Shown here piece by piece: positions 11,801 to 56,046 of a DNA stretch of 64,000 nt. Position 1 is the stretch's first letter; every line of letters starts with the position of its first letter. The DNA is taken from the NCBI GenBank assembly GCA_002633005.1, contig NMRA01000198.1, positions 656,115-720,114 on the forward strand. The letters are read 5' to 3'. Both the position numbers and the translations under genes were made by a program. The DNA comes from Phoronis australis (lineage: Eukaryota; Animalia; Phoronida). The notes below the pieces were generated by a model. It worked only from the letters and a program-made list of their open reading frames with translations, searched no databases and was not told the origin of the DNA.

Positions 11801-14800
11801 TCCTCTTTGACTAAAGACATTTTCTAATAATATAACTAAAAAGTGAGCCCTGAATTCAATGAAAATATATAGGGACTTAGTCCTTAAGTTAGGTGTGTTG
11901 CATGAAAAGATCGTTATACATTTTCGATAATATTTAGAATTCAACGTCCAATTCACTGTTGATTTGTATCAGACCCAAAAATTGACGTAGTAATGAAACT
12001 AAAACACACAAGAAAGGACAATCAGTGTTTTCATAAGTCCACAAATACGCAGTAGATTTAGGGAACTTAGTTGAGTCCCTATTTGGGACTGTTTCATGCA
12101 ACCCGCCATAAGGCTCTAAAACCAAATTCTACACAAGGTGTACTTGACATGGAACATCTGACAGAGAACAGCTGACTGGGAAGAAGTATAAACATGTGTA
12201 TAAACATGATTGACAAGGAGCAAATTGACACCACAGCAACCATTTCTTTCAAAGGTTTGAGAGGTAGAGCAAGTTGCACTGATCAGTTGCTCTAGTGTCA
12301 ACTGTAGGTCTAAACACATACTGGGGCAAGGCAGATGTGATCATCACTCCGAACATACACAGACTATCTTTGTACAATTGACTTCCATGCTGATCCAGTG
12401 TACCATAATGTCAAGTAGAGCAACTTGTGCCATGGCAAGCGTGTCTCATTAATAAAAGGCGCAAGGTCCGTGTGCTACATGATGAATGCTTCAGACACCC
12501 TTCCACACAACTTGTGATTAGCCTTTTAAATGTAGAGATACTAATTAATTACTGGTGTTATGTATATGTTACAGTTCACAGTCTAGTCAGATTGTACTGT
12601 CTGGGGCAGGCAAGAAGTGCCCATTGCTCATCTTCAGAGCTGATGTCGTGTACAAAAGAGTGGCAGAGGTGAAGGCTATTGGAGGTATGGGTTGACTGCG
12701 GGGAAATACTTCCATTGAGGAGGTGTATGGGACTTGTTGCTCAGAGGGGATACTTTTTGCACAGTTAGTTTCTCTATGGAATGGGGTGTTTACCGACAAA
12801 TTATGTACAAATAGTGCCCCTTGCAAATTTTCGCTTTTTTCGAGTCCACTCTCTAAATTTATGGATATAATTCAAATTTTCCAGGTACACTCCTCTGTTG
12901 AAAATATTTAGTTGAGTACCCCTTTGTATTGACTGTTTGTTGTCTACCATAAAGGCTGGCTAAATGTAGAGTATCTAATGCTATTTCGTCATTTGTAGTG
13001 ATTTCAGGGGTCATTTTTACACAACAACCTGAAATAATTATCTTATGATTTAGATGTCTAACAGGGAAAATTAGTGTGACCCTGGCTTGATAATTAAGTT
13101 GGATCAGCTGGGATTTTTATTTTAGAGCTGTATTCATTTTCCGGACAAAAATGCTTTGCTTGCCTTAATTAAAATGAAGCTCCACAATGCTAGTGTGCGT
13201 GACCGATGACAGTATTGCCATTGAAAATTTTTGCCGTGTAATTTGATGTTCTGTCTATCTAATATGTAACTGTGGCACATTTTTGTTTCAGAAAAGTACC
13301 ACATGGCCTATAAACTAATCAAAACAGAGTGCAAGTTATTGCGAACTATCCTAAACGGTCATGGCTTTCATGAAGTAAGTTACTCCAAGGTTTATGATCT
13401 TGATTTTTAAACTTTTTTCCCATTTCGTAATGGATGTCTCTGTTTACCTAGTGGAAATATGTTTCATGACTGGAAGTATGATGTGACAATTTTGTTTCAT
13501 ACTTTGTTAAAGGTGCTGGTGGTAGTTAAAGCTTGAATTTCAGTGTAACTCATTAAAGACTTATAACTTATAGCCCGTACAATGCCTCTTTCAAAAGCCA
13601 TTGTTTTTGCTCATCTTTTGGAGTGGAACCCTTTGTTTTTGGTGTTTTAATATGGTTACACCATGTACCAAATGTCATTCATTGATGGCGTAAGAGGAAG
13701 GTGTACCACCGTTTGCTTGGTTTATTTGTGTTCGAGGTTTGCAGCTTGACCTAGTGCAGCAAAAGCACTCTTGATCCTAGATAAGCAATGATCATTTGGT
13801 TGTTATGATGTTGTTAATTTCCTGAGTAGGGTATAAAATTGTTGTTTGTCTCCCTTTGTATAGGCTCACCCCAACAGTAATGACTTCAACTTGATGTGGA
13901 CGGGGTCACACATCAAACCATACGTTCTGAGGGCATTGACCGAGTTCCAGAAGGTCAACCACTTCCCAAGGTCATATGAGATCACACGAAAAGACCGCCT
14001 CTATAAAAACATTCAACGAATGCAACAGACTAAGGTGTGTGCTGCTGCTCTCGTATTTAAATTGTAGGAAGGTTTTTAGTGAAAATGCTAACATACATGG
14101 CTCAATGTTGCAGGATATTGTGGTGATGTGTTCATGGCTCTCATTACCTGGTGGTTGTCCGGTAGTGCCTTCTATTCGACTTTGCTCCACACTGGAATTA
14201 AAGCGCTCTTTTTAAGCTTTTTCCACTTACGCATCTTGTTAAAACAAAAAAATGACACACCCATTGTATTTGCTCATACTAAAAATGACCAACTATAGAT
14301 CATTGCATTGTTAGCTTCTCAAGTTAAAAAAGCGGGAATGGGTCCATTTGATCAAAGGCTGTACACTCAGTGATAGCTAATATCATTATATTTTAAATTT
14401 AAATCGCGCACATATTTATGTCTCATGAAGTTGATCGTTGAATGTGAATACGGTCATTGGCTAATTTATGCCTTTTGGAATGTCTAGTTCTTTTGAACAG
14501 TACAAGATTATATTTTCAATGATTTGCCTATGGCTGTCATAGCTATGACATGATTTCTACCTTTGGTATATGGTGCCCCAAATATCCTGGCCTATTTGAA
14601 GGCTAATTATCAGTTTGGTGACGAGATGTTATGCAAACTTTCGCGTGTACATTTTTTCTAGATGGGGTTAGAGTGGTCAGATGGATGTTGATTGATGCTT
14701 CTTTCAATCTTAATTTCAGGGTATGAAGCACTTTGACTTCATCCCACAAAGTTTTATCACTCCAGCTGAGTTTCAGGATTTTTGCTGTAAGTATTGACTT

Positions 14801-17800
14801 GGCCATGTACTAAGAGTGTACTGTGTGGTGTGGTGTTTGGCCTACAAGGGATTTCTGAATCGGACTTTTTTCTGAGTAATTTGTGTTTTAGCTTCTACTA
14901 CTGTTAGCAACCAAGTGAGAACTGGTTTTGGAGTTATGGTGCGAGCTACTGTTTTCAATGTTTTTCTCTTAGAACTTTGTCTGCTTATGGTTGAACAGTT
15001 CTAAAATGCAATTCGCTCATTTTTTGTTCGAGTTACTCCGAGCTGGTCCAACTCATTACTTCAAGAGTGCATCAATTCTTTGTAGCGGAGTTCATGCGAA
15101 ACGGTGGAATGTGGATTGTAAAACCGTGCGCCATGGCTCGGGGGAAAGGCATATTCCTGATCAGTGATGTACATTTGATGTTACTGACTGCTTGCTTTAC
15201 AAACACATGTTGTGAACTGACAGACATTGTAATCATGTGTCGTCACTATCTGTTTATTTTCACGGCTGAATTTTTAGTGCTAAAGTTTCTATTCCTCCAA
15301 GGACTTTAGCCAGTTCCAGTCTTTGCAGTTCTAGCGTGTCAATACCACTTAAACAGTCCTTGATGTTGTACTGTTTGGTTGTAACTTACTTGATCCTGGA
15401 TGAGAAACACATCTATGTTGCGGGTGCGCAAGAAAAACTTTTATGCCGCAGATGCGCGAATCTTTTAGCAATCCCTAATATCGTTATATGATGAATTTAA
15501 CGTGACACACATGCCTGTCCCTGTTCAGACATGGTGTTTATGAAACTAACTGCTTGTTAGTATTTTGGTGTATGCTAGTGTAACCTTCTACTTCTGTTAG
15601 CGTTCCTGTTATTCCCAGTTACATGGGTAGAATATGTTTGAGAACTGAAAAATTGTGTCTGTGTCTGTACGCAGCAGAGCTCTTTGTTGAATGATTGTAG
15701 CATGACTGTATCGCAGCTGTACTCCTTGTGGAACTGAAGCTCAGTAGTGCTGAAAAGTGATGCATTTTACATAGATTTTAGTCTACTTAAGGGAATCTTT
15801 AACAGAAAAGATTGAGAAAATTATGAGGTTCTGTTTCGCTATGTAATTTATCAAGGTTTTTTAGGACCTTATTGACAAGTCTGTGCATGTGGTCAAATAT
15901 CTACAAAATTTTAACTTTAATACTAAAAGTATGTATTTTTTGAAAGCAGACATCCTGTACAATTTGATTTCTTTTTGCTAAATGTGCCGTTGATTTTGTC
16001 ACATTACTGTGTCTTTTATGAGTCCTATTACTGATAACATCTTATGCTAAACAGAAACGTTTGAAAAACATTTTCCAGCAGCATTTTGGATGACAGTGCA
16101 TAAAGCATAATGTCTGAAAGTTTCACATGAATCCAACCAGCCATTTCTGAGATGTAATGTTCCAAAAATGGCCTAATTTGTGAAATTTTCTAGCGTACTA
16201 TCTAATCTATGTGGAGGAAAGTTCGATTTCTTGGTTATCTAACAGCATCATCTTTGCAAAGCTTTTTTATAAAAAGCTTTTAAAAGAAGTGAGAGAGGCA
16301 CAAGAAAACAACACCTTTCCTTTTAAATTTTAGCAGAACTTTGAATATCTATCTAGTAATTACTCAGCTATTGGGGGACCACGATTTCTTACTTTCTGCA
16401 AAAAAATATCTGACGAAATTGAGCCCAGATCATTTACACTCGGTAAAATTATAAACTTGACTTTCCACTTTCTGCACTGAAGTAAATTGTAGGTCTGGCT
16501 CTGTAATACAGACAGAAATCCAGACTCAAGATGTCTCTTCGCTAAATCGCTCTACTTGGAATTAATGTTATTCTCAATTCTACTTTCCACATAATATTGC
16601 CAAAAAATTCAAGTGCGACATTGGATAAGGTTAACCCAGGCTCAAACTGGGGCTGAGTAGAGATTATGCCCGAGTTGGTGGTTGAATCTCTGGTCATGAG
16701 GTTTAGAAATTTGCGTCGTGCCTACAAGTTTTTATCCTGTACCTTTGTGGAGGGCTGGTTGTGATGGAGAGGTTGTGTAATGCTGTTCATGGTGTTATTG
16801 TTTTGTTGCATTTTGCGTTGCTAAGTTACATGTTATTCTTGTGTTGGTTGTAGCCGCTTTCCTTAAGGACAAAGGCCCGTGGATCGTGAAGCCTGTGGCT
16901 TCCTCTCGGGGAAGGGGCATATTTTTAGCTACGCATGTAAGTCTGCCTGCTGCTGTCAGTCAATAATGAAAAAGGCGGAGTTTCACTCCTTTGTTTGCCA
17001 ATCAACAAGAAGAAAAAATGATTTCCAATCTAGCACCAAGCCATCCAGAGTGTACACATGTCAAACTGTCCAGAGCATTTAATACAAAAGATTTCATATC
17101 AGTGCATGTCAGTAGCTGATATGGGAGTGAGTGATTCTCAAACCGAAAAAACTTGCGGTGGCAATTAACATGCATGGTTTGCATGCTTTGAATGGTGGCT
17201 TTTGTCTTCGTATATGTTTCATACGACGCGTGTTTTACCTTACAAGTTTTTTGTTTTATGGTTGGAACTAATAATCTTATAGTTAGGTTTCAATTATAAG
17301 GAATAACTAATATGCTTAAAATTGATAATTAACAATGGTTAATTGATTGAACAATATTGTGATCAGCTTGCTTGTATTTTCCATGATTTATTCCCTACTT
17401 TGTGTCGCACACCCTTCCAACTAATTGATCTTTTTCACTACAGCCCGATCAAGTGCCATTGGATGAAACCTTTATTGTGGCAAAGTACGTCAACAACCCA
17501 CTTACCATCGATGGTATGTAGTTGTCTTCTCTGTTAGCATCAGGCATTTGGTCATATTATGTAGTGCACGAAATTGTTGTCTAGCTAATGTGTTCAGTGA
17601 ATATTTAGAAAGTAAGGATGTTGAACGAAAATGATTCTGTCGGAAATTGTGAGTGCATATCGTTAATGAAAATCTTCAAAAGTTATTTTGTTAATTTGAC
17701 TGTACAAAAATTTGATGTAGGGCTCTGGAATCATTTTTACATTTTTCATTCCAAGGTGACGTGTATGCTGTACTGCAATAAAGTTATAAATGCATTTTCT

Positions 17801-20800
17801 GTGTTTTAGGTTTCAAGTTTGATCTACGCCTGTATGTAGCTGTGACTTCCTATGATCCACTGTGTATATACTTGTATGAGGAGGGTTTGACTAGGTATGC
17901 TAGTTTCTAGTGTCCAGTCTTTCATTTCACTTTTCTAGGTTAATTGAAACAAAAGCATGGAGATCTATTGTGCAAGTTTTTTGAAGTGTAAAAATGAATT
18001 AAAAATCATTCTGGCTTTCACGGAACTCTGTAACTATCTGTTGGCTGAGAACATAAGATTCTTCAGTGACTCGGGAGATAAATCAAGTGAAATCAATAAA
18101 CAGTCCTTGTTATTAGTTGTTTATGTAATGAAAAATACCGTTTTCTGAAAGCATTTTGGGCCAGAGAATTGTTAATCATTGGATGAATGAATTTTCTCTG
18201 GGTGCTGGCGTTCCATATTTCACGTAGAGTTAGTAACAGATATTGACTAAATCTTGTGAACACCTCAGATTTGCGACAGCGAAGTATGACCGAAACCCAC
18301 GACATATGAAGAACCAGTGCATGCATCTGACCAACTACAGCGTCAATAAACGCTCAGATAGTTTTGTGTCGTGAGCTGGCATTTTTGTTCGGAGTTCCTC
18401 ACATGTGCTATGTCATATTAGTTCTGTAAATATTCTAAACATTCATTGTCTGCACCAAATTCTTAATTGGGAAATGGATGTTTCTTAATATTACAATGAT
18501 TCAGTCTTGGTCACGTGTCATAAACTACTGAGCAGATGCAAATGTTTAGAGAACTAGTATTATTACATAGCGAGGTTAAATTAGAGATTTGAGTTTTATT
18601 TAATTCCTAACAGCTTTTTTCAGTTGTTGAAAAATAAAAAAAATTTTAAGCCCTTCCTTGAAATGGTTTTTGTTGTTTTTGATGTATTGGGCTACTCAGA
18701 TAGTTCCAGCGCTACTTTAGCTACAGAAAATGTGATTTAATCGCTGAAATGTAGGCTGGTCAAAAACTGTGCAACTAGTGTGAGAACGCAGAACAAAGAA
18801 CAAATTGTTTAAAGTAGTTGTCTTTAAATAGGATTGAACAGAACACTGTAAAAGGTTTTTGGTGGTGATGTAGACAGATATTTGCCAATGAGCCTAACTG
18901 ACCGTTTATCTGCCCAGTCATTGTTGTTCAAAATATATGATAGCAACTAATTTTTTTGTGTTAATATTCCTAGGCAGGCTTTAAAATCAGTGGTGAAAGT
19001 AGCGGAGGAATAATTTATCATTACCCTATCACCAAATGTCTTCCAATGAGGTCCTGTAAATTGCTACCTTGTTTCTTATGAGTGACTTGGACGTATGAAA
19101 GATGAAAATTCCGTAAGCTCGTTGGTTTTACGGCAATTTCCTTTTAGTCCTTGCTTGAAAGTTGTGTTGGTCATCTGAAAAAATACCGTGAACTTTTTAT
19201 TAGGAATTTCGCTTAGACTGAATGTGGTGGCTTTGTGATACTCCATTTCTGTACAGTAGGTAAAAAATATTAGGTTAGACAATCCCAGGTTTATAACAGT
19301 GTCTTCTATTTTGTCACCATGTCTCCTGTAGAAAGTTGGTAAACTACACTAACCTTCATGGAATGAATTTTTATAGCTAGTGCTGTTACGTTGTATTGAA
19401 ATAATGATTATTACCTTTCGGTGGCATAGTTTTTCTCGAGAGTCTAGCTTTCGAACTCATCCTCCCAGTGCCCTGACAAAGAGCCCAAAATGGGCTCAAA
19501 AACTAAGCGCTCGAGAAAAACTAGCCTGGAGAAAGGTTATAATTTCAATACACTAACCTTGTTTTGTTTTGTTCCATTGATTTCGTTTTCATAACTCAAC
19601 ATAATTAACCTTGTAGGTTTGCTACTCAGAAGTTTGAGAAGGGTAGTGCACGCAATATCAAGAACCACATGATGCATTTAACTAACTATAGTGTGAATAA
19701 GAAAAGTGCTGATTTTGTACAGTAAGTTCAAATACATGGAGACAAGTGTAATGAGCAGTATACTGCAGGTTCTGTTATTTTAGTCAAGAAATGGCCGTCG
19801 ATCAGTTTTCAGCAGGGATGTTGTTTCCTTATTTGAAGTTTCAGTAATTACAGAACTATCGCCTAATCTATTGATGTTGATCATTCATGAAATAGCACAA
19901 TTTTACATTTTACTTCTGTGTACTATATTAATTACTCTCATATCATTTTTAAATTAAAGAACTTGTTGATTCAACTTTTATCACTTGTTGCAATTTGAAG
20001 TTTGTAAAATACACTAAATTTTTTAAAATGACCATTCTTTGTCCAGGCATACCAGATGACCAAACTATGATTAAAATGTAACGGAATTGCAAAATTGGGC
20101 AATAGTCACATATGTGGTCCCCAGATTTATAGAACCAGTTTGATGTTCCTGATTCAGTTGAGAAAACTGGTTTTGAAGTGCAAACCCTGTTTCCCAAAAA
20201 TGTTTTGGTAACATTTCTGATGCTCTCAATTTTCAGAAATGATGACCCTAATGTAGAAGATTATGGCAATAAATGGTCTCTCGGTGCAATGTTACGATAC
20301 TTGAGGTCAGAAGGTCATGACACAACAGGTAACTAACGAAAACTTATTAACATTTCCACTTCATTTCCGTAATAATGTAATTATAGACAAATTCAATTTG
20401 ATAACTTAAGATATAGGTCTCCTGTTTTTATGGAAGTAAGCTGCATTTTTCTATTGATTTTGGTTATCAAGTTTTCTTTTGTATGGAAATAACATGATGT
20501 GGAAGTGTAATAGGATTTAGTGTTAAACATTCGATGAGTGTTGTGTAACTGTCTTATTTACTTTGAGACTCCAGTTGCAGTTCCCTGGAGCGGTCATCTT
20601 GTAGAGTAAGGTAGGGGGTGCAGTTAGGCTTCTCAATCCGAGGCGATATTTGTACCTGGCCGAAAAGGATAAATGTGACCCATGTTTTTACCAAGTGCTA
20701 AAATTGTACCCATTACTGAAAGAGGTCTTAAAACATGACCAATATTTACATCTCATCTGGAGAAAGCCACAAGATTATGTAATGCCTTTGTGGGAGCTGT

Positions 20801-23800
20801 CTGATTTCAGTTAAATGAAGGTTCTTAAGAATGTGGTGTAATGGCTTACTTATCATGTTTCAGCATTGATGATGAGGATTGAAGATGTCTTGACGAAGAC
20901 AATTATCTGCGCTGAGTTACCCATAGCAACAGCCTGTAAAATGTTCATGCCACACAAAGGAAACTGTTTTGGTAAGAAAACAGCACTATAAAAAGCCCAA
21001 GGCGACTCCATGATCAAAAGCGCCCCCTGTTGGTCTCCAGGTGATACAAGCGGATAGTTGTACTCTTGCAAGTCATGAAAGTCAAAGTATGATGTTTCTA
21101 CAAATCATGGTGTACTGAAGGTTTTTGATAACACCGAAGTTTCTTATTTGATGGCTTTCAAACGTCTTGCGTATTTTGTGTTGCGTGAGAGTCGGACTGA
21201 ACCTGCATCAGATGCAGTGCAAATAATTGTGTAGCTGACAGCCTTTATGGATGGATGAACTGTGATGCATGTAGCTTATGTTTAAATATGTGGTATTGAA
21301 TACTAAGTCATTCTTTTGGTATTAACATCTATGTGCCGTCTTGCAGAGGTGTACGGGTTTGACATACTGATAGACAGTAACATGCGGCCATGGATTTTGG
21401 AAGTGAATCTCTCTCCATCTTTGGCCTGGTAAGTTATGCTGCATTCCAATCAGAATCTCTAGACATATAGATTATTACAAGACGAACTTGTTGTTTCCAG
21501 TGAGATTGGAGAAATTATCACCTGGGGGTTGGTTGTCCGGAGGTTGATAAATTCTCCAAATCAAACAAGGGGTCTAGACACAAGAAATTATTGCCAAGGA
21601 TATATGGTAATGTGTCTACCTATCCCATATATTGAGCAACAGTCTATTAATCCCCAAAAAGTTAAATGAAAACATTCGAGTTTTGTGAACTTTACTATTA
21701 ATAAATTAAGTGCCCACATGCACAGTGTGGGGACGTGGTTCAAAAGTAGTGGTGGAATTTTTGAAGTTTTGGAAAAGTCCAGATAAAAATTTGTCGAGTT
21801 GAATCTCTCTGAATGTGGAGCGTTTTGAGTTTGACTGCTGCTGTAGTGATGAAGTATATTGATATCAAGATTTCCTTTTTGGGGATTGTGATTGAGTGAG
21901 ACCTTTCCATCTTATTTTGAAGAACATTTCAGATAGTTATTAATTCTAGCTTTGTAGTGTTTCTGAAGCAGAGTAATTATGTATGTGCAATAGGCTGTTT
22001 GAATTCTCTGATCAAGTTGTGTTACTGTTCATTTATAGCTCTAAACAGTAAATCAAAGTTGCTGTTAATGTTGCGGATAACGTTGTGGAAAATTATGCAT
22101 TGAAATGTTGCGACCCTGCTTTGGACCAGCGTGGCCAATTAAGTGTCTCACATTCATTTGTTTTCTTCTCTCCCATCGCGAGTCCTGACACTAGCAGCGC
22201 GGCATTGTACTACGAACATTCTAATCATATGAGGGACTCACCACCAACATTGTAGTAGTCAAAGTAGGACTGAATAAAGCATGAATCAAGATTGTGTGAT
22301 CATCACAGTATCAGTTACCTTGTCATTGTCGTTTTCCAGCGATGCCCCACTGGATCTGAAGATAAAGTCCCACATGCTGTCAGATTTGTTCTCTTTAACT
22401 GGTATGCTGTTACTTTCATTTAGTCTAAAATTAATTCATTTTCTAAGTGTGGAAACATTGCTTCCCTTACGTTGGTTGGTGTTTTCTGAAAAGAATGCAG
22501 TTCATGTCAGTGTGGCAAAGCAGTTTTTTTCTAGATCTTTCTTAGAAAAGTTACATCAGTTAGAAAACGTGTTATGATATGCGGTTTTTGAAAACGTTTC
22601 AGGTTTTCCTTGTCATGATCCAATGATGCGGCCCGCCAAAACCCCTAATAAAGTGCCTGACCCCAGGCTGACCTCGTCTAAACAGGTAAACGTTATGCGT
22701 GACCTACTTCGTGTTTTTGTGGAAAATCGCTGAAAAGTACTGGGATTGTGTTGTATTTCTAAAGTTATTGACTGTTTTCTTGAAGTACTGGGTTTTTGTG
22801 TTGTTATGTTATTAATGCTGATGGAATTATCCAACATTTCGTCCTTTCACTCATAATATTTTGACTTTGATCAGAAAGGGGTCTGATTTGTAAAGCTGCT
22901 TCGAATTTTTGCCGGTTGAACTTCTCTGGAATCTAGTAGGGTTTGCTTTGTGTCCCAACTTCAAAACTAGTCTTCTGCAATTTAGCTTGTACCCCGTTGG
23001 TCATACATAACTGTCTCATTTTCAGCGATCCTCATCTCTTGTTGTCTCACTCTTTCATTCTTTTCTGTGTTTTTGTATCATTTAGTCCAACCGTCAGCGT
23101 CCCTTCTCAGCGCCATCAAATTCTGGGGTTTGTACGCCATACAAGCACAGTGTCAGCAATTTAACAAATCACTACAATTTGTGAATTTACTGACTGACTG
23201 TATAGCAATGTTTCGGGGTCACATGACTGTACTTTCATAGATAAGTGTACAATATTTGTGTATTTATTCACAAATGTTATTGATTTCTTGTTTATTTAAA
23301 AAAAAACAACCATGCATGACTTGCGATCCGGCCCATATTTTACTTTAAACACTTTTTTCGGAAAACAATGATTATCCCTTTTGTTCAACGGCAAAGATTA
23401 ACTGTAGCATTTGTTGTTTTAGAGCATATTGTCATGTGACTTCCTCTTTGCTGCCCAGCAGTCTTCTGTATTCGGATATGCTTTTATTTCTTGGTCATCC
23501 ATTTTACATGCCGCACTGTATCACGCTAACCATGTAACCTTCCTTAGTCTGGTCTAATGTAGCATTTAGCGTAACCTGTGTTCGGATTGTGGTAAACCTT
23601 GCACATGTAAAAAAACTACAGCCACGAAATATCGGTGAATACAATATACATAACTGCAAAGTATTAGTTTGATGTGTTAATTGCCTTTAAATGGATTACG
23701 GTTGAATTATTCACTCCAATCAGTCATTGTATTCTGTTGAGTGAGAAGTGCATTTTGTAAATCACTTAATTTGTTATTCAAGTGACTAACTTCACAGACA

Positions 23801-26800: not shown

Positions 26801-29800
26801 GGTAGCATTAAGCATTTCCTTGTCTGTCTTGGAAATAGGACGTACCAACTAATGTCATTCAGAATGTGTAAATTGCTGAGATGGCATGTAACGACATGTT
26901 ATGTCCCAGTATTTCAAGGTAGCAACCATTTTATTCGAAGCGTGTTTACACCGACAAAAGAATATGGATTTGTTTGTCAGTGTAATTATTTCCTTGCTGA
27001 GCCTCATTAAACTAGCCATTCTATCCAATGTAACATGGGGTTGGTGATGGAAGTGTTTTGTGTGGTCCCATTTACATTTACTGTTGAAACCCTGCTACAA
27101 CTGGTTTTCTATACACACTAATTAACCTGTATGCTGATAATATGGACAGGGTCTCCACACTTTGCTGAGGATGTTTTCCTTTAAGTTCTGCTGGCTTCCT
27201 GCCTCCATCCTTCCCATAAGTTGAACTATTGCTTTAGCATGCCAAAGGTTTGCAAGCTGATGTCACTCTTTCTTTATCAAAGGCCCGGGATATTATCTTT
27301 TTATACAAATTCAAACTTAAAATTATTGTAAATTTTTTCTGTTCTTCTTTGGTAAGGGACTATTACTCTGTGCTTGCATATGTTATGGTTTACGTATACG
27401 ACTGTGTAATCCTATTTTACATTTGATGACCTCAGCATTGAAGTCATAAGTTCGAGGTTGAGCTCAGAATTTTTTACTCGAAATCTCTTGTATTTACTTT
27501 TGAGTTTGTAGCTCGAATTTAGGGGTCATCAAGTGCAAATTTGGAGTACACAGTGGTTACTGTAATTTGGAGTACACAGTGGTTACTGTAATTTGGAGTA
27601 CACAGTGGTTACTGTAATTTGGAGTACACAGTGGTTACTGTAATTTGGAGTACACAGTGGTTACTGTAATTTGGAGTACACAGTGGTTACTGTAATCTGT
27701 AATAGTTTTGTGTTGAAACGGAGCTGGAAATGACAAATATTTAATTTCAAGTTCAATTTCGAGTAGAAGATTAGATCCTGGGTGTAGATCTTTCCAGAAC
27801 AAAACTTTATTATTTCAGTCATTTGCAGGCTTAAAAGAGATACGAATTTAAGTTTTGGAAGGAATTCCTTACTGCTGCATTTCAATTTTGATTGAATAAT
27901 TAGCATGTGCCAGTGATATGTCTTTTGCAATTGATGAGAGTTTTTCATACTGTAATTCTGTTGTCCTCCCAACAATGTGAGTTTTTAAGGACTTAGTTGT
28001 TTTTACCCATTGTGTATTGACATTTGTTAGATCAATTAAGTATCGTTTATCGTGACTGTAGCAATTGTGGTAGATATATCAACTCACTCAGTATTCTGTA
28101 AACTACAAAACACTATGGTTCACCATTTCATAAGCCAGTCTATGAGTCACCTGTTGTGATGCTTCTGTGCCTCATCCATGAAAACATTTACAATGTTCGC
28201 TTGGCTCTTAGGTTAGGTTAGTTCACACTTCACTTATAACTCAGCCTATGAAGACTGTGTTCTCAGAGACAATGGTTTCAGAGTTGTCCTCTACTTCAGT
28301 AAGAGGTAACCAACGCGGCACATACAAAAAAGTTTTTTAAGAAAAGGCTTAATGCGTGTTTACATGATAACATGACTGTATGGTTGACTTACTAGCCAGC
28401 CATTTTTCCCTTATCTCTTGTCTATTGCTCACAACATTATAGGATTATTAGAGAGGGAAGTCAGCTAACCTTATAATTTTTGGTCAGTTTGGCATATTTT
28501 ACTAAATACTCCAAAGGGTATTTGGAACCTTTTCAGTGGTTTTCTATAAAATGAAATAAATAAAAGTATGCAGTTCTTCAAACCAGAAGAGGTGATGCTG
28601 ATCTATGTCTGACAATGTCCACCATCCTGGGTAAGTTCCGTACTCTCACTTTTCAGTTCCAATAACTCACTGAGAGGTTCGCAACTTTTCAGTCAAAGAC
28701 AAGTTACATATAATATTTACTTTGACTTGAGCTATGATGCCTGAAACAGGTATTGAGACTGATACAGTTGGTTAGTCAGACACAGACTGTTTGAATTATG
28801 CGACTTTAACACTGCATTGCACTGACGGTTTGGAGAATTGTTAATATGATGGTTTTTGTAAAAATCAACAAAAAAGATTTTGAAAAATATGCCAAATTGA
28901 CTAAAACATAGGTAGAATTTCCCCTTTAATCATGATCTTTGTTGGACCTGTGCTAGCACAATGAACTTCTAGTTCGTGGAGAAATTTGTTACAACTTCCT
29001 TTCAAAACTAATAAAAAAAATATTTGCAGGTGGTCTGTACCAGACGTGCGCAGGCCGCACATGTGGGCCCATTGCACTGATCCCCTGGAACTATTTTTGT
29101 GCTTTATTAATATATAGTTAAAACCGAGCTGAGGAGCTAGAAACCTGACTGAAGGGTCTAGCAGTGTGACCCAGTAGGACTCGAACCCACGACCTCCAGT
29201 AAAGTAGGCGGGCACCTATCACACTAGGCCACATTGCCTCCTCTCCTTTAAAAACTAGATCACTGCTCAGTGCACAAATAGTACCTTGATCCACCAGATG
29301 TAGGCTGTAGTCTTATGCATGCAAATGTCTATCAACGTAATATTTAAGTCAAGTTATTGAAGTGTTAGTTTCCCCGAAACAGATGTGGTCATTTTTCAGT
29401 ACATTCTCTAGTTCTGAAATCTCTACATTCCAGTAATTGTCAAATTAATATGAATTAACAAATTACCTCATCATTTGTTTAGTCTGTGGTTCATGTACAA
29501 GTGATATGATTCCAAACAAAGGTCATACCCTAGACTTATTCAACTCTTTATTTCAGATACCATTACAGCGGAAAAGTTCAAAGTAATTACACTAACGTCA
29601 ATGCCAAGATCAAGTGAGTGTTTAAGCGCACGTGACTTGTCAAGTGCAGTACACAGACTTTGACTGCGCAGTATTATACGGGTGGATTTAGGGGGTAGGG
29701 CGGCACACCGACTTGTCCACGACCCTCTGCTGTGGGCACGAGCAAAAAACATTCCCATTTTGGGACTGGCGCAAATGTTGCGCCTTCAGAAATTGTGGTC

Positions 29801-32800
29801 GAGCCGCACTCGTGACATCATGTATCAATTAGTGTTGTAAATCGGATTATGTGTTGTGGCACAACAATGACCTAGTGAATATGACCCATGTGTTGTTGTT
29901 TCAGGTCCTGGACCATTCACATCCACAGTGCCCCATACCCCACCTTGACATCGGGGGCTGGGCCAGAGGTAGGCTAGTTGTCTTATTGCACGTATTTGGG
30001 GTCTTGCTTTTTAGTTTGTGCATCATTGATGTATATCAGATGAAAAGAATGCTAAAGGTATTTCGAGACCATTTGCTGTTCCGTGTTTTATGTATTCTTA
30101 CTAGTTTAAGTCACATTTACTTAGTTTCAGGAAATATGTGAAGTGACAATCAATTTAAAATTCAATGAGTTACTCATGATTAGAATTTTTCTAATATGTC
30201 TTTTACATATTTTTAAGATGTTTTTAAATCTGCTGTAACCCTGCTTTCTGTTAAAAACTGATATAGGCCACCTACCACTGTAGTACAAAAGTGGCTTCAC
30301 CTTGCCCCTTACGTCTAATTTGTATATAGCCCTGAGTCCATGACCACTTTTGCAATGGTTGATAGTCTTAAATCATTATTTTTACAGGTGGCAGGTTTAA
30401 TGCAGATTTAACTATAATCTTTCCCCTCATTGAACACACTTCCACTTAGTTGTCATAGCCAGGATGCAAGCTGTTACAATGATGATGAAACATTCATGGG
30501 GCGACTAAAAAAGAATTTAAAATAGTAAAACTTATAGTAAAACTAAAACGACGAGCGTCGGTAGCACACCCTTGACAAAGAGCGCATCGCTCGAAACGTG
30601 GGGATATTTTAATATATTTTAGTACCGATGCTCGTCATTTTAGTTTTGCTAGTTTTACTATTCTATATTTTTGTTCATCGGTAACTGCACGGCATTCCAA
30701 CTTCTACTTGATAAAAAAGAATTCTTGAAATTTGAACTTAAAGTCTTTGGTTGATCTCATGATTTGTGAATTAAAGCGATGGTGTTAGTGTATGACTAAT
30801 GTTACTATTATCTTTGAACATTCAAACTTAGAAATTGTCAATTGTTTTTTTTCAGTTGGTTGTTGTAATTTCTTATAAGATAACTGTCAACATTCGTAAA
30901 TTTTCGTCTCATTTTTCTTTAATTAGCCTTTTAACTATCCTATTTCAATCCTCAATACCTGAAAAATCTCGCTTCATGCCTTGAAACTGTGCATGGTTGT
31001 TAACACTTATGTGACTGCCATTGTTTGTGAAAATTGTGTGTCTTTTTTACTTTGAACATGATTTTCCAAAAAATTGAACTTCAGGAAACTTACTATAGAC
31101 AAAGTGATAAACTATACTGTCCACACATAGGGAACTCTCTCACATTTTTTATTTACCCTCAAACTTCAGATATCAGCCATTTAATTTCCTTTTGAAAAAA
31201 ATACCCTGACTCTTCCTTTTGATGGCCAATGTCTCCATTATTCGAAGGAAAATAAAAGTTATGAGAAACTCCTTAGCTGTACCATATGGAATAAGTATGC
31301 AACGTTTCATGCAAATCAACCGTCACAATCAGGAGAAATCACTTTTCAAAACTGCTAAAATGTTGAAAATCAACATGCTCAAAACTGTCGTCATAGATTT
31401 GTTAGGAATTAAAATTTAGCATAAGTCTTTCTTAACAACTCACACATTTGGCACATCAATAATGCATTTAAAGAAACGTTATATATAGCTATGAAAACAG
31501 GTATATGATTTTTTACATAATGTTTCATATTGCATTTTTGAAGAAAAGTCTGTAAGTGGGGAAAGATAGCAAGTTTACCACATCAGTTCTGGTAACCAGC
31601 TTTTGTTGCCTTCTCTCAAACTTAAAAGCATTATCTCAGTTTGAAATGTTTACCTCCAAAGGTGCACCGCACATACTATTGCTTTAATAAAAAAACCCCA
31701 ACACTCGTTAAAGATGAATTAGTGTCCATAACGAACTGACTGTGTATGAGGGACATGTCATTACAGTTGGTACCCCACCAGGATGTTAAATGCAGAAAGG
31801 TAGTATTACCAAAGAGTTACTGGAATGTTGACCCGTTGCACATATCCCGCCCGCACTCACGCGTTTACCTTGGACAGATCCCCACTACCACTCACATGAT
31901 GTCTGAAAGTTATTTGATTTCAGTGTTACTGTGACATTGTGAAGTCACTTCTGATCGTAACTTAAAATTACACCCTCATATCTTCCTTCCATTGAGTGAC
32001 TACTGCTCTATGTTAGTTGCTGTGTCAGGCGGCCTGTTGCCCAATAAGAGACTTGGCCCCCATAGGATGAGCGTGCAGATGAGAAACTTCTACCATCGAT
32101 GTCAAGGTGGAAGTTGTACAAAAAATCTCGCTTTGCTCATTAGTGATGCGAAAAATGCCTTTGACGATGTGTAGAGAATAGTTGCAATACAGTTCATGAA
32201 TATGTTGTCTGCAGCTCATTGGCATTGTGGAGAACAAGAAGGAGCATCCCAGCAAGGAGATTATACGTCTGCTGTCTGCAGCTGTCACCTATATCACCAG
32301 GCGTTGTCTGTTTGACAAAGTAGTAATGAACTGCATTGTACGTCCTTCTTGACACAGCTTTTGTGCACTCCGGTACTTGTACTGATGTGCGCTGAGCCTG
32401 AATGTCTTGTTTCTGGGAAATTTGCTATTGGGCAGATGCCTGTCTTGACACAGATATCCATGTCTTTGATGTTTCTGTTTTTTTGTATGGATTTGTTGAC
32501 ATTTTGAAAATTTAAAAACTGCACGACGTCATGTGGGAGGTTTGCATGGATATCCAGGGGGGTTTGTCACATGATGCTTCCCATAATGCTTCTGGCAAGC
32601 GGATGGTACGTGCTCTGCATGGTTGGTGGTATTGGTGGCAGACATGCTCTAGATCTAGACTGTCACAGTTTTGTTGTATGTTATTCTAGCCAGCAGTAGT
32701 GCATGATCTCGGTGAAAAACTGCGCACACAGGCCATTATGGCTAAACAACAGCAGGTGATGGTGTTTTTAACCCAACCCAATATTTCTCTGTGTTTGTTG

Positions 32801-38800: not shown

Positions 38801-39357
38801 GATCAAGTTTCAGACCTTTTTGAAATTAGTTAGTATCCTTTATGGTGCAGAAACTAGCTTAGTGCCTCTTCAAAGTTTAGTTGATAATTAAGCAATGGTT
38901 TGCTTTGAACACAAAGTGTTGCCACAAACTCTGAATTTTGCCATCAACACTTGAGTGTTGCCTCAAACACTGGGTGTTGCTTTGAACACTGAGAGTTGCA
39001 CCAAACACTGAGTGTTGCTTCAAACACTGAGTGTTGCTTCAAACACCCAATGCTGCCTGGAACACTCAGGGCTGCTTTGAACACTGAGTGCTGCTTTGAA
39101 CACTCAGTGCTGCTTTGAACACTCAGTGCTGTCTTGAACTCTCAGTGCTGCTTTGAACACTCAGTGCTGCTTTGAACACAGTGCATTTTTATTAGATAAT
39201 AGATGAGTACTCGTAAACCAGTAACTCATGTCCGTTTGAAGTTTGGAGATTCTGAGTGCTGTGATGCAGTTATAGTTAGCACTTATTGCAACAATGTGAC
39301 CGTATTATAACTAATTTGGAGTGATAGCTATTGTAGTATGTGGTTGATTTTTTGTAA

Positions 39358-39397
<40 letters not shown>

Positions 39398-42300
39398 CCT
39401 CTGTTTGTCTTGTCATCATTCTCACCACTTGCCATTAGTTTAAGGACACTTCACATATCGTCGTCGACTGGTCATTGTCAATGCCTTGTTTGTGTACAGG
39501 CTCTATTTAACACATTCTATGACAACGATATTCTATGGTATTATTTCTCTGGCACTGAAGAATTTTGCAAACCATCCGATTTTTTTGGTTGTACTGGAGT
39601 GAAAAATCCTACTGCAAAAGACAAGATCACCTTGTCAGGTTGTATTTCGATTTTGGTTAGAATTTTACTTTCAACTGACAAATAATGTTGTGGTAGTCAA
39701 AAGTCTTGCAATAATAATCAGTGATACCAGTAGATATGATAATGATGATGAAATTGATTCCATTACATCAGGATCTGGTGCTGAGGTTCCTCAAGAGAGC
39801 TGCTACCAATCTACAACAATCTTTCAAGGTGGTTGTACCCAGCCGGAAACTACCATTGAATGATCGCCGGAGAATCCTGGCCAAACAGCTCGGCGACTTT
39901 GTGCACATTTACAGCAAGGTAAGTATAGCATAGTATAAGTGCAGCGTTGTATAAGACAGTGTACATTGGTATAAGTGTAGGATTGTATAAATGTTGCATT
40001 GTATGAGTGTAGCGTTATTTGAATGTAGCAATGTATGACAGTGGCATTGTATGAGTGGCATTGTACGAGTGTGGCCATTGTACGAGTGTGGCATTGTGGG
40101 AGTGTGGCATTGTGGGAGTGTGGCATTGTGGGAGTGTAGCATTGTGGGAGTGTGGCATTGTGGGAGTGTAACATGGTATGAGTGTGGTTTTGACCAACTG
40201 TTATTTTTGACTTTGTTCTTGTGAAAACTTTATGTTTATCACTCAACAATTTCTTATAATAAACGTTCAGATTATGCAATCTTGTGATTGGAATAGACAT
40301 GGTTTGACAAACATCATTGCTGGTAAATGGCATCAGAAGTAGACAGGATGTAACATTCGTTGTGGTTTGACTACAACAAAATCATGGAAAAATGTGGCTG
40401 CTAAGTGGTACTCATTTCTGTTTTCTATAGCTGTTTGTAAATTGACAGAATTTTGTAACAGTTTTCTTAAACGACATGTAATCCTTGCTTAACTTTTGCT
40501 GTTAAGTGAAAACAGTATTTGGTTCATTATTTATGTATTTGGGTCTATTAAGTCATTTTCGAACCAGGACAAAGTTGAAATGCGGCATTAACGCATTGGT
40601 TTTTAATGTTTGGGGTGTTTGACTTCAGAAAACTTAGCTTTTGAACATGAGACATGTGTGGTTAACATTACGTTTGTTTGACTGAGTAGTTAAAATCAGG
40701 GTATCTTTATCTTCAGGAGACCGAGCAGTTAAATATACGGAAGCAGATCGAGAAGAAACACATCCGAGGTCTGGATGAGGAGCCTACTTTGGACGAGAGG
40801 AGATTCTCTAAATTCATCACCATAGCAACGTAAGCAGAACTATCGCTTGTTTATCAACTGCGCTGTCCCTTTTTTAACTAAGCTTGGCTCCTGTCACCGT
40901 ATCTGTTTTAATAGCTCTTATTGGTCATAACATTATAATTTCAATAGATTTTTACAGACATAAGCTTCAGTTATAAGACCAAATCTCTTGGTTCGGTTGA
41001 ATTTGCGATGAAATTGTTAGATTCCATTCAGTACTGGCCATTCTAGATAGTGTTGTATTAGAGACATTCACAGTCTTAAGTGCTGTACACACACAGACTT
41101 ACCCTAGAACTCGTTACTCCTGAAACTGGTTGTGGCTGGGTTTGGGCTGTCTAGGCACTATTTAAACTAGTGTACTAATGACAACTTACTCCACCTTATC
41201 GAGGTAGGGTAACTTAGTCTTGCGCCATGTCTAATCACTGTGTGGCTGCAAACATGGGGCAAGACAAAACTAATTATCAGCTGCGCACTTGGACGTTACA
41301 TACATATGAATGTTTTTTTGCTCTGCATTTGTATCAGCTGTTCATTGGCATGTGCTAAGCGACAACTTCCAGCCTTGCTCTAGTGTGTGTGTGGACGCTC
41401 TGTTTAAAGTGGGAAAAGTTGCATAAGTTGTTCTAGGGAAACTCTGTGTGTGGATGGGACTACAAGAACAGACAGCCATCTGATGTACTTCCCTCAAATC
41501 AGCCAACAATTTTCTCACCATGAGAAGGCTATGCACAATTGACGTAACTTTCTCTAAAGTGTAATAACGAAAGTGGTGTGTAGTACTACATAAAAGCCAA
41601 GCAGTGCGATGATTGCCTATAACAGCCACCTTTGTGACTGAAGCACCTCATCTGTCATCTCATTCTGCCGCTCTTCTACCTCCTTGAAAATTCTCATATG
41701 AATACAGCATCAGTCAACTTAGAAGCTGGCATTCTTTTTTCCAGCGAGACGGAGCTGGAAGAGGTGTTGACTACATACACCAAGCTGAATCGATCTGCCA
41801 GTATATTCCTTGGCAGCAGTGCCAGGACAGTAGACGTGGCCACAGGAGCCCCCATCGTGCGTGCTCCCTCAGACACGAGCTTGAATCGGCCCAAGGAGGA
41901 AAAGGTCATCAAAATACCAACAAGGACGGAATATGAACAGACCAAAGGTAAATGCTCAAGTCATTCTGCATGCTGCTTTGATCCTTTACCAGCGTGATCA
42001 CGGTGTTCTTTTGGGACACCACTAATGCATACTGAAAGTTTTACAGAAAGTGAATTGGCCATTCTCAAAATTTATGTATGGTTGACAGTTGAATGCCAAA
42101 ATGAGGCTTGAGCAACATAATATAGAGCTGATTTGGCTTGCTCATTTGTTTGGAGATCGAGGAATTTTTTTATCCGTTCCTGTGTCTGGTCCTGAATAAG
42201 TTGCCAGATATAATTCACTTCCTATCGTTTTAGGTAGAAAAGAATACTAAAAGCAGAGCCATTGATGTTATTTTAACTTTTAATTATTTGGTACATGAAG

Positions 42301-45300
42301 TTCATTTGTGTTAGTGATTAGAATGTAGAGACTAATATTCACAAGTTATCTATAAAGAATGGCCAATTTTTTTAAGGTTTGCAAAAATTAAAAAGTTTGA
42401 AAACCCAGTGTCTTCCTTATCCTGAAGTGTTTGCATCAAGTGTGCGTTTAGTTGCTAGTTTGAAGTGAAAGTATTTGACATCAGTAAGCTTCTTGTTCAC
42501 TATCACCAGTGTGTTTGTTGACCCCACACCCTTTCTCCTGAACTTCAACCCTGTCCTTTGAACTTTGTTCTGTCCTTAAGTGTGTGTGTGTTTATCGTGC
42601 AGTGTTGTCTTTGCCATTTTTCTAGCTACCACTGAGGAAACCTGGGATGCAATTGGGCCCCGCAACACGGGAAACAATCCTGTGGCCCATGCAGGCTCCT
42701 CTCCATCGCTGCATCAGACAGCGAGTGTATACAGTCAGAGAATGGCGGGCTCCACACGCCAGAGACCAGCGTCAGCTGGTATGCATTCTCGTTCAGGTGA
42801 AAGCTTAGCTTGTAGCACAGATGGGAAGGCNTGAAGCACCTCATCTGTCATCTCATTCTGCCGCTCTTCTCCCTTCTTGAAAATTCTCATATGAACACAG
42901 CATCAGTCAACTTAGAAGCTGGCATTCTTTTTTCCAGCGAGACGGAGCTGGAAGAGGTGTTGACTACATACACCAAGCTGAATCGATCTGCCAGTATATT
43001 CCTCGGCAGCAGTGCCAGGACAGTAGATGTGGCCACAGGAGCCCCCATTGTGCGTGCTCCCTCAGACACGAGCTTGAATCGGCCCAAGGAGGAAAAGGTC
43101 ATCAAAATACCCACAAGGACAGAATATGAACAGACCAAAGGTAAATGCTCAAGTCATTCTGCATGCTGCTTTGATCCTTTACCAGCGTGATCACGGTGTT
43201 CTTTTGGGCCACTGCTAATGCATACTGAAAGTTTTACAGAAAGTGAATTGGCCATTCTCAAAATATATGTATGGTTGACAGTTGAATGCCAAAATGAGGC
43301 TTGAGCAACATAATATAGAGCTGATTTGGCTTGCTCATTTGTTTGGAGATCGAGGAATTTTTTGATCCGTTCCTGTGTCTCGTCATGAATAAGTTGCCAG
43401 ATATAATTCACTTCCTATCGTTTTAGGTAGAAAAGAATACTAAAAGCAGAGCCATTGATGTTATTTTAAATTTTAATTATTTGGTACATGAAGTTCATTT
43501 GTGTTAGTGATTAGAATGTAGAAACTAATATTCACAAGTTATCTATAAAGAATGGCCATTTTTTTTTAAGGTTTGCAAAAATTAAAAAGTTTGAAAACCC
43601 AGTGTCTTCCTTATCCTGAAGTGTTTGCATCAAGTGTGCATTTAGTTGCTAGTTTGAAGTGAAAGTATTTGACATCAGTAAGCTTCTTGTTCACTATCAC
43701 CAGTGTGTTTGTTGACCCCACACCCTTTCTCCTGAACTTCAACCCTGTCCTTTGAACTTTGTTCTGTCCTTAGGTGTGTGTGTGTTTATCGTGCAGTGTT
43801 GTCTTTGCCATTTTTCTAGCTACCACTGAGGAAACCTGGGATGCAATTGGGCCCCGCAACACGGGAAACAATCCTGTGGCCCATGCAGGCTCCTCTCCAT
43901 CGCTGCATCAGACAGCGAGTGTATACAGTCAGAGAATGGCGGGCTCCACACGCCAGAGACCAGCATCAGCTGGTATGCATTCTCGTTCAGGTGAAAGCTT
44001 GGCTTGTAGCACAGATGGGAAGGCACTACTTGGTGCCTTATTGCAAATTTTGTGGTAGAGTTCAATCTCAGACATTATTGCAGATTCCAGTAATAAGAAA
44101 TGGGCTTGATCTAGTCACATGATGGTGTTGTTTAAAACGAGGTTGATCGTCATTGTTAAATTTTTATTAAGTTTCCTTTTAGAGTGAATAAAAACCTTGT
44201 CATTTTATGTGCCCATGTATACCGTTCATCTGGGTGCATGCTGCTGTCATCTCTCGGTGTCTCACATCTGCTGCTGTATCTCCCAAACTTCTAATAGAAT
44301 CTTGACGAGATTTTAGTATTATTTTTTGCATTGGATGGGATTTCAAAAAATTTGGCTAATATGTTTCTATTGAAGAGATAATGGTGCCTTCTCATTTTCA
44401 GATGGAATTTGATGTGTGCTGTGGTGCCTTGTGGCCTCTTTTATTATTTTTGAGTCCATTTTCTGGTGTCTGACTCTATCTGCTTAAGTACTTGAAGGTT
44501 TATAATGAAAATAGGCAGATATGTCCTGTTAAGAAGACCACAGCTAAGGTTGATTTTTGGACGTGTTTGAGGACTGTGGTGCCTCCTAATGGCAATTTCA
44601 TTTTTTTACAGCCATGGAGTAACCCTTTCCACGAACTTTGTGAAAATTGGCAAGTGGTTTTCTGTGAAAGTGAGAATGGATGATCGGGACTTGTTTTTTA
44701 CATTTACCTCTGTAACTTGGGAATTCCATGAAATTTGTCAAATGGGTTTCTGTTAGGAAGTTGAACGAGTTCAATGTATTATGCGCCATCAAACAGCCAT
44801 TTTTATGAAACTAATAAACCTCCTGTAAGCCTACCATTTGCGGTGCAGTCTTTGGTGCATGATTTGTGTTTGTTGTATTTTCAGGTGATCTGTATATTAA
44901 GGACTTAAGCTTTGTCGTCAGTTGTACATAGGGTTTCTCTTTGGAAGGAACACAATCGAAATGGTTATTGTAGTAGAGATGTCATTTTAAAATTTCTTTG
45001 TTACATTCTTGAAAGTTGACATCAATTTTACAAGTGCAGTTGCTGAAAATTTCTACTGAAATAATGTTATACTCAACAGGTTCAGCAAGATCAACAACGT
45101 CAGGGCGCCCTCTATCTGCCCACTCCACGGCATCACGTCCGAACTCATCAACAATGTACAGGGAGAAACCCGATGGAAAATCTGATGTAGACGATGATGA
45201 GGATTTAAACAATGCTTTGCAGGTGTGTACTGTGGGCCAATGTGGATTATTGTGGAGAGGTGCCATTATTTTAGCGATCTAAAATTCCACTTTTCACCAT

Positions 45301-50500: not shown

Positions 50501-52499
50501 AGGAGTGAACAGGCTAAGCCGGGCTGTCCCCTGGTGTATACTTTGAGCGTCGCCTTATGTAAAATTACCTCAATACTTGTCTGGGTGGCAGAAAAGGATT
50601 ACGAACTAATTTTTGATTCGTAATATTGAAGAGCGTGTTTCACCTGGATGTCACATTTGTAGCGACGGTGTGCGTTAACAAATTTAACTGACAGCGGAAC
50701 ATCTCTAAATGTGCTCAACTATTTAAAAGTACCCAGAGAATCGTGTGCTAGTGTGGGTATTCACCGGCTCACGCACTTCAGATAAATTGTTCAGGTAAAT
50801 TATTCACCCGACATATTGCAGTATCCAGCTGTCTCTGGGGGACGTTAATTTCCCGTAGTTTGCACGGACGTACAAGATTTATAAACGTCGATAACGTAGA
50901 ACTTGCCATCATTGAAGTATCGGACAAATTAGGGAGGTGTTGGGCGTGAACGCTAAGGTAAGCTGCGGGTACGTTTTCGTTCAACGGTGGTTACCAAACA
51001 GCAATTCATTTGTGATGAGACCGCTACTTGCGTGTTCACCGTTGATATACGCAGAAAAGTAATGTAGCTTGTTCAATGTAGAATTAAAAAAATATCCCTT
51101 TGACCCGTAAAGTGCAATAGCACTATGTTTGTGTCAATCTCACTATGTGGCGTTTCATTTTATTTGTACACTGAGTTAGCCGTGCCATAATTGTGTATAT
51201 AGATGTTACGAGTATGCACTCACCTAATGTTTTTAAGTGCTTGAGAATATCGATCGCGCAATTACTGCGACTGACTTAACGCCGAAGGCGCACAGATGGA
51301 CATCTGTTTCTATGTCATGATCGTTGGGTTAGAATTAAGGCATGCTCAATAATCTAAGCCACCGAAACGAAAGCAATGATAATGTTTGCATCAGCACAAT
51401 GAACTGTTTGTGTAGATTTAGCATATGCATTCACTGTGAACGAATTCGTACCATTCCTTTATCCGCGGATCTTCGCGTTTACATGTTAATTCCAGTAAAC
51501 AAATACAGCGTGATTGTCAGCGGAAGGGTTGCATTCAGTTTTCTAATTTGCAACGCTCTTAGGTCCATATCATTTACACGGAACAGTGACGCCCAAAATG
51601 TTGTGTTAATCAGCACCTCGGTGGAAATGTCGGCTGGCTGTAGGCCCCCATCAATGGCGCAGCCTTGATCGAGGTACGTTTTCGCATCAGTATTTTTAAA
51701 AAAACGTTATCAAAATAGCCACCATTGCTCGAAAGCAAATGGTTGCCATCATCTTTCTTGATAACATTTGTTGAACAACAACATTTGTGTCCATTTGAAT
51801 ATGATACAAATTGGTGCCTCGATAAAACCAAACGCCGTCTAAGCATAAGTCAGACAAAAATCGCCACGTAGTTCTTTCAGTTATCAATAACCTGGAAATT
51901 AAGATTCACCTCACGAGATCTTTCCAGTTTATTCTGTGGAATCGAGCAATCCGACAAAATTATATTTTAAACTGGCTTTGTTGAAGTCCTGTTCTTGATC
52001 ATATTCGTCAAGCTATTTTATTCATATAATGCGATTTATAATTAGTTTGCTATTATCGGCAAAATGCGCAATTCTAGGTTCTCTCCCACTTCGATCCAAA
52101 CCCATGCACAACGGATTCACAGTTGTCGAAGAAGCGCACCGACGGACAAGTTACTAAGTGTAAAAGAACTTTTAAATAAAAACTCAAAAACAAAAACACT
52201 TCAGGACCATTATGTGGATTGACAATGCTACCCTGAAGCACAATATAATGTTGCGAGACGAGCAAACTGTGAACTACCTCAATGTATGACTAGAACACTA
52301 GACGGCTCAGACTTAGAACATATTGTCACGTGTATCATACGTTCACGGATGAGAGAGCACAGATCGATGCGGCTACCGATATGACCGACAACAAAAGTAA
52401 ACTGAAAATGATTGCATTTTTTTATTGGACTTTCAGGGTGAACTCTCCGAACAAACAAAACGTATCTGAACAGGGTTACAACCGAGACGAAACACACAG

Positions 52500-55827: not shown

Positions 55828-56046
55828 GACGAATAGCTACGACTTGAGCTGTCGCCTGCTTCAAGTGAACGGTAGCTGAGCTTACCATATTGCCGGGAGG
55901 GCCAGTGCAGACGAATAGCTACGACTTGAGCTGTCGCCTGCTTCAAGTGAACGATAGCTGAGCTTACCCTATTGCCGGGAGGGCCAGTGCAGACGAATAG
56001 CTATGACTTGAGCTGTCGCCTGCTTCGAGTGAACGATAGCTGAGCT
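55828..56046. repeat. 82-bp tandem repeat, ~2.7 copies
   Basis: Units start at 55828, 55910 and 55992. Confidence 0.92.

Follow-up and report, generated by a model that had tools for sequence, protein, structure and literature searches.

The + strand of the 64,000-nt Phoronis australis window, by which we mean the whole stretch of DNA that was analysed and on which all positions are given, carries one TTLL5 gene. In a similarity search with the exon that neighbours the first duplicated pair described below, the named top matches were TTLL5 proteins, with up to 93% identity. The Pfam TTL domain scored on all five exon peptides of the gene that were submitted (5/5), and Atlas assigned the gene to the TTL family. 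Between about 12.6 and 46.6 kb, successive exons of the window could be aligned with the TTLL5 protein of Owenia. In a quick tree of 28 rows, the window gene falls within a lophotrochozoan group of 18 rows (SH-aLRT 100), its nearest rows being Lingula, at 78% across 458 columns, and Owenia; the tree places it no more finely than this. The C-terminal domain of the TTLL5 structure 9phh matches residues 671-840 of the Owenia protein, and Owenia residues 685-838 match window exons located between 36685 and 43022. Membership of TTLL5 is thus indicated both by the TTL domain together with orthology and by the C-terminal domain. The gene is orthologous to animal TTLL5 (nearest Lingula XP_013422025.1 and Owenia CAH1792718.1), shares with the known TTLL5 proteins their TTL and C-terminal domains, and matches their canonical sequence in exons B and C. 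It differs from them by two duplicated exon pairs in the catalytic domain, named A/B and C/D, which are flanked by shared exons (Table 1).

Table 1. Positions in the window of the duplicated TTLL5 exons, of the shared exons around them and of a candidate splicing element. X1 and X2 are RNA runs.
Feature	Position	Strand	Support
Shared exon before A/B, 3' end in phase 1	14720..14786	+	joint 14786->15086: 7 reads in X1, 2 in X2
Exon A (83 nt): diverged copy of the exon for the beta5-beta6 ATP loop, weak donor GAT/GTACAT	15086..15168	+	16 junction reads in X1 + X2
Exon B (83 nt): copy with the canonical TTLL5 sequence, consensus donor CAT/GTAAGT	16854..16936	+	at most 25/27 residues identical to orthologues
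Three TGCATG, 167-249 nt past the B donor, inferred to be a candidate Rbfox enhancer for B	17103..17185	+	
Shared exon downstream of A/B, matches the span where two Owenia isoforms differ	17444..17513	+	joint 15168->17444: 4 reads in X1, 3 in X2
Shared exon upstream of C/D	17810..17894	+	reads and homology
Exon C (102 nt, the canonical length): HLTNY loop, TTLL6 261-265	18269..18370	+	entry 1 read (X1), 5 (X2); exit 4, 5
Exon D (105 nt): second copy of C, one codon longer	19617..19721	+	entry 5 reads (X1), 2 (X2); exit joint unlisted
Shared exon downstream of C/D	20237..20328	+	reads and homology

Exons A and B are tandem duplicates: they are adjacent homologues, identical in length and in phase, and have canonical AG..GT flanks (A tttgtag/gtacat, B gttgtag/gtaagt). 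Their boundaries, their length of 83 nt and their passage from phase 1 to 0, all proposed in the initial annotation, were confirmed on the sequence. A gap-free alignment of the two exons gives 44 identical nucleotides out of 83 and 14 identical residues out of 27. On the Pfam TTL model, A scores 22.8 bits and B 20.1 bits, for a cut-off of 20.1. Placed between the shared exons 14720-14786 and 17444-17513, either A or B alone maintains an open frame. When both are included the first stop is met at 16887, and when neither is included it is met at 17464, so that the frame is indeed shifted in both cases, as had been claimed. The further proposal that nonsense-mediated decay (NMD) can enforce exclusivity fits this frame logic through the computed stops, the NMD step itself being a prediction. 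The contrast drawn between a weak donor GTACAT in A and a consensus donor GTAAGT in B also held: among the 12 donors examined, that of A is the only one with neither a G at -1 nor a G at +5. B likewise proved to be the canonical TTLL5 exon that the initial annotation had recognized.

The divergence of the two exons carries the mark of selection. A and B are identical at 16, 18 and 9 of the 27 first, second and third codon positions, and different codons are used for 9 of the 14 identical residues. We mutated B randomly to the nucleotide distance of A, with uniform substitutions and no indels. A fraction of only 3e-5 of the 200,000 runs kept both an open frame and at least 14 identities, and the 11-residue core was kept in none of the 200,000. 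Exon A is thus a coding exon under purifying selection. We infer that the A/B duplication is old, the third codon positions being near saturation, and that it is narrow in range.

To document the use of these exons, four RNA runs carrying the same species label, with tissues unrecorded, were aligned to positions 13200-21100, drawing on about 18-19% of the raw data of each run. Useful depth was reached only in X1 and X2, which come from one study, and X3 barely covers the gene. A joint was listed when supported by 3 reads from 2 starts. In X1 and X2, reads join A to both of the flanking shared exons, entry and exit together amounting to 16 reads. Exon A is therefore found in transcripts, a condition that the initial annotation had set for its proposal. 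A read variant within A, at 15138, is synonymous. In these four low-depth runs, none of the joints entering or leaving B, linking A to B or skipping the pair reached the threshold of at least 3 reads. The two bins that include B have no coverage in X2; in X1 they receive about 230 aligned bases at most, enough to accommodate a few B or intronic reads. A is the prevalent form in the sampled X1 and X2 RNA, despite its weak donor. This goes against the earlier suggestion that A is the regulated minor form, with the reservation that it is at low depth that A junctions alone reach the listing threshold in X1 and X2. Of the junction counts that had been called for, those of A were obtained in X1 and X2, by run rather than by tissue, and no B joint was listed. 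Because its sequence is conserved, B is probably included in tissues or stages that are sparsely sampled here, possibly via the TGCATG cluster located behind it. The interval 16093-16234, in the A-B intron, and the interval 20131-20192, in the intron after D, hold a short dispersed repeat, to which many reads originating in other parts of the transcriptome align partially.

Rbfox sites located downstream of an exon promote its inclusion in muscle and neurons. The cluster behind B was noticed post hoc, and at least three TGCATG are found in 0.7% of the 250-nt windows of the gene. A second cluster of three TGCATG lies at 32543-32700, in the central part of the gene, which shows little similarity and where there may be another regulated exon. 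Two other means of exclusion were considered and set aside. Steric exclusion is unlikely, given an A-B intron of 1685 nt, a C-D intron of 1246 nt and an AG-free zone of 26 nt for B. Exclusion by RNA structure is unsupported: the inverted repeats are short and imperfect, and the hairpin over the A donor has a z-score of -1.0. A 54-nt inverted repeat, 74% complementary and with a 29-nt loop, was observed at 19407-19543; about 75 nt separate its end from the start of exon D.

When aligned with solved structures, the loop encoded by A and B corresponds to TTLL6 K174-P-D-S-G-C179-Q180-G-R182-G183, so that the pair does hold the residue equivalent to Q180, as the initial annotation had stated. According to a preprint on TTLL6 (10.1101/2020.06.07.139295), ATP is cradled by two loops, K174-G183 and H261-Y265, and Q180 and H362 decide between initiation and elongation. 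In the same text C179 is 'not critical', and R182I/S367H were added without better initiation. Q180 is also presented as the primary determinant in PMC12366701. Both A and B have Arg at the Q180 position, and the residue equivalent to H362 is Leu, encoded by an exon common to all forms. The Phoronis protein thus shows what is expected of an initiase, namely Arg at 180 with either exon and a hydrophobic residue rather than His at 362, and the A form lacks the Gln180 expected of an elongase. With Arg180 in both copies and Leu at 362 in a shared exon, a switch of the A form to elongation would not be predicted. This agrees with the earlier remark that both copies keep Arg and that a full switch is not to be expected. 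It goes against the headline of the initial annotation, in which A and B swap initiation and elongation specificity, as does the Ala179-Arg180 of A, which is the same as in the engineered TTLL6 initiase KPDSGARGRG (PDB 6vzq). This C179A/Q180R/H362I enzyme has in common with the A form the Ala-Arg of positions 179-180 and the hydrophobic nature of residue 362; it is, however, a laboratory mutant of an elongase, whereas in Phoronis the variation arises naturally, through splicing. Two of the four loop changes of A fall at 179 and 182, which according to the TTLL6 mutants do not decide between initiation and elongation. The nucleotide-binding residues of the loop that are named in the preprint (K174, position 180 and G181) are all kept in A. 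TTLL7 has Met at the 180 position.

We then compared exon A with the TTLL5 loops of other animals. The loop KP[VI]ASSRGRG, present in exon B and absent from exon A, is found in 386 of 392 TTLL5 records (322 in the Val form, 64 as KPIASSRGRG), a redundant set made of the best 120 of 1846 and the best 120 of 2001 matches with their cluster members. The remaining 6 records are without the loop. None of the 392, which include the annotated isoform sets of 17 clusters, has an A-type loop, and in this respect the Phoronis gene stands apart from animal TTLL5. Distinct orthologue segments, 72 in number, were drawn from 255 of 273 proteins, after removal of 3 non-TTLL5 sequences and of 15 without the anchor. 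They contain 11 invariant columns, all of which are kept by B and 8 of which are kept by A. Residues never found in these segments amount to 9 of 27 in A and to 1 of 27 in B, and the net charge of the segment drops from +4 to +2 in A. With 3 of the 11 invariant columns changed and 9 novel residues out of 27, a functional difference between A and B is plausible.

The residues of A point in part towards other members of the family. By BLOSUM62, the highest score of A is 86 among 78 animal TTLL5 segments and 99 among unnamed Gln-type loops, which we take to be TTLL1/TTLL9-like; the single best segment, at 104, is unnamed and Arg-type. Gln occupies the key position in 20 of the 26 loop-bearing matches to A in a HMMER scan, a resemblance which is inflated since the Gln-type matches were selected as top scorers out of 1.8 billion proteins and which the intron-derived flank of the query favours. 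Cys at 176 and Lys at 182, both found in A, occur in other natural TTLLs. The TTLL1-type context that the initial annotation had read in A is therefore borne out to the extent that A is closer to unnamed Gln-type TTLL loops than to animal TTLL5. No A-type exon of another species was found in protein searches. An orthologue of A was found neither in a protein-frame search, which gave two weak non-orthologous matches among three candidates and weighs little, nor in a metagenome scan, whose 14 loci are all distant intron-less TTLL loops of the type KPVG[KR]SRGKG. The HMMER scan did not retrieve one either, its 29 matches consisting of 3 unrelated repeat proteins and 26 TTLLs, none of the latter above 40 bits; for 8 of these matches, a look-up returned no family name. 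Among the sequences collected, P0286 and P0287 are fragments of a TTLL5-type exon in which the residue equivalent to Q180 is Gln (KP[VI]ASSQGKG), and a natural Arg-to-Gln change may have taken place in some TTLL5 lineages.

The second duplicated pair, C/D, was not part of the initial annotation. C and D both encode FAT...HLTNYSVNK, which corresponds to the TTLL6 loop 261-265. After the extra codon of D, they share 16 of 24 residues, 9 of these 16 with different codons. In X1 and X2, reads join C to both of its flanks and D at its 5' side only; at the low depth of these two runs, neither an exit joint of D nor a C-D joint was listed. Four X1 reads run past the D donor, where the frame stops at once, and D may not give a full-length protein. 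Since the lengths of C and D are both divisible by three, exclusivity cannot be imposed on this pair by NMD. Watersipora (P0229) is alone among the 255 records that contain this segment in having the length of D, with 24 identities out of 34, which may reflect shared ancestry of D or convergence. In Owenia, the two TTLL5 isoforms CAH1792718.1 and CAH1792719.1 have equal lengths and show 12 differences, all within residues 207-226. These residues match window positions 17444-17513, that is, the exon located between the pairs A/B and C/D. This suggests a separate, independent mutually exclusive exon duplication in Owenia TTLL5. As in Phoronis, one catalytic-domain exon's worth of sequence varies between the isoforms; unlike in the Phoronis pairs, the variable exon is the one that follows A/B, and it is known from proteins alone.

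The reading that we favour, with a probability of roughly 0.6 (0.62), is that A and B are tandem duplicates, likely mutually exclusive, that both are predicted to give initiases, and that these likely differ in rate or substrate preference. According to this model, A is spliced between the shared flanking exons, as seen in the reads, and A and B would be used one at a time, transcripts with double inclusion or double skipping being presumably removed by NMD. The two exons would thereby provide the ATP and acceptor loop in two variants, both predicted to initiate chains. C/D would do likewise for the other ATP loop, which could bring the number of catalytic cores to up to four. A more far-reaching version, which we hold to be doubtful, is that splicing rebuilds both ATP lids of TTLL5 and that the prevalent A form is a natural hybrid, an elongase-like loop with the Arg of an initiase. 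Under tissue control, this form would yield glutamate products different from those of the B form, in chain length, in alpha/beta choice or in non-tubulin targets. If that were true, the variant exon of Owenia would make the TTLL5 catalytic domain a recurrent target of exon duplication.

A simpler alternative would be that the two loops are functionally equivalent, or that A is the weaker one, with substrate and product unchanged and the pair kept because expression is divided between the copies or because it serves to adjust activity. The conservation of K174, position 180 and G181, the presence of Cys176 and Lys182 in natural TTLLs and the failure of protein searches to find A in other species are all compatible with such equivalence. 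We nevertheless consider it unlikely in view of the changes at three otherwise invariant columns and in net charge, and of the retention of both copies while third positions came near to saturation. That no B junction was listed in the four runs, with little or no depth over its bins in X1 and X2, could also mean that A replaced B in Phoronis and that B is rarely used or is a recently silenced relic. But useful depth comes from two runs of one study, and B retains every invariant column, its close identity to orthologues, a consensus donor and the TGCATG cluster, so that this reading appears improbable. The notion that exon A makes TTLL5 a chain elongase draws on the higher scores of A against Gln-type loops than against animal TTLL5, on the prevalence of Gln among its matches, and on the Met of TTLL7, from which the Arg/Gln rule is seen to be incomplete. 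It is very improbable: A has Arg, in the Ala-Arg context of the engineered initiase, the second determinant is a Leu encoded in a shared exon, and the matches in question are inflated in the way described above, the best-scoring segment being itself Arg-type. The residue context that A has in common with Gln-type loops might finally be explained by its having been copied from another TTLL paralogue instead of duplicated from B. We give this hardly any credit, since A has the exact length, phases and position of B and matches it without gaps, and the Gln-type fragments continue past both boundaries of A. Sharing of length, phase and position favours a duplication, followed by drift toward residues used by other TTLLs.

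Substitutions derived from tandem exon duplication are described for KHK, PKM, ACOX1 and CAMK2D in PMC8373072 and PMC9741552, where co-inclusion of duplicated exons is barred by frameshift and NMD. PMC9741552 reports that human duplicated exons keep 80.6% of ligand-binding residues while their neighbours vary, and that human duplicated regions tend to avoid ligand sites. TTLL was not found in the accessible parts of these two articles or in the one supplement searched. Phoronis TTLL5 resembles substitutions of the KHK/PKM type in having homologous adjacent exons in which ligand residues are kept and neighbours changed. It departs from them in that both of its pairs sit on ATP loops, whereas exons of that type tend to avoid ligand residues. 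In the open-access literature, judged by titles and the starts of abstracts, we found no report of duplicated or mutually exclusive exons in TTLL5 or other TTLLs. The specificity of TTLLs is usually assigned as one enzyme per gene. Splice-swapped ATP loops would provide natural pairs of enzymes that are otherwise identical. A/B pairs could be used to probe the residues around Arg/Gln180; the TTLL6 mutagenesis covered 179, 180, 182, 362 and 367. Automatic annotation based on homology would choose exon B, and the sampled RNA uses exon A.

Several features were observed in the remainder of the window. A 1.19-kb tandem duplication with 98% identity occupies 41639-44024. Each of its units holds the same TTLL5 exon, with 1 nt of difference in 87, which is explained either by an exon duplicated very recently or by a haplotype that the assembly left uncollapsed. 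Self-comparison of the window revealed short tandem repeat arrays at 27538-27696, 38897-39179 and 55828-56046. An open frame of 327 codons is located downstream of TTLL5, at 52470-53453.
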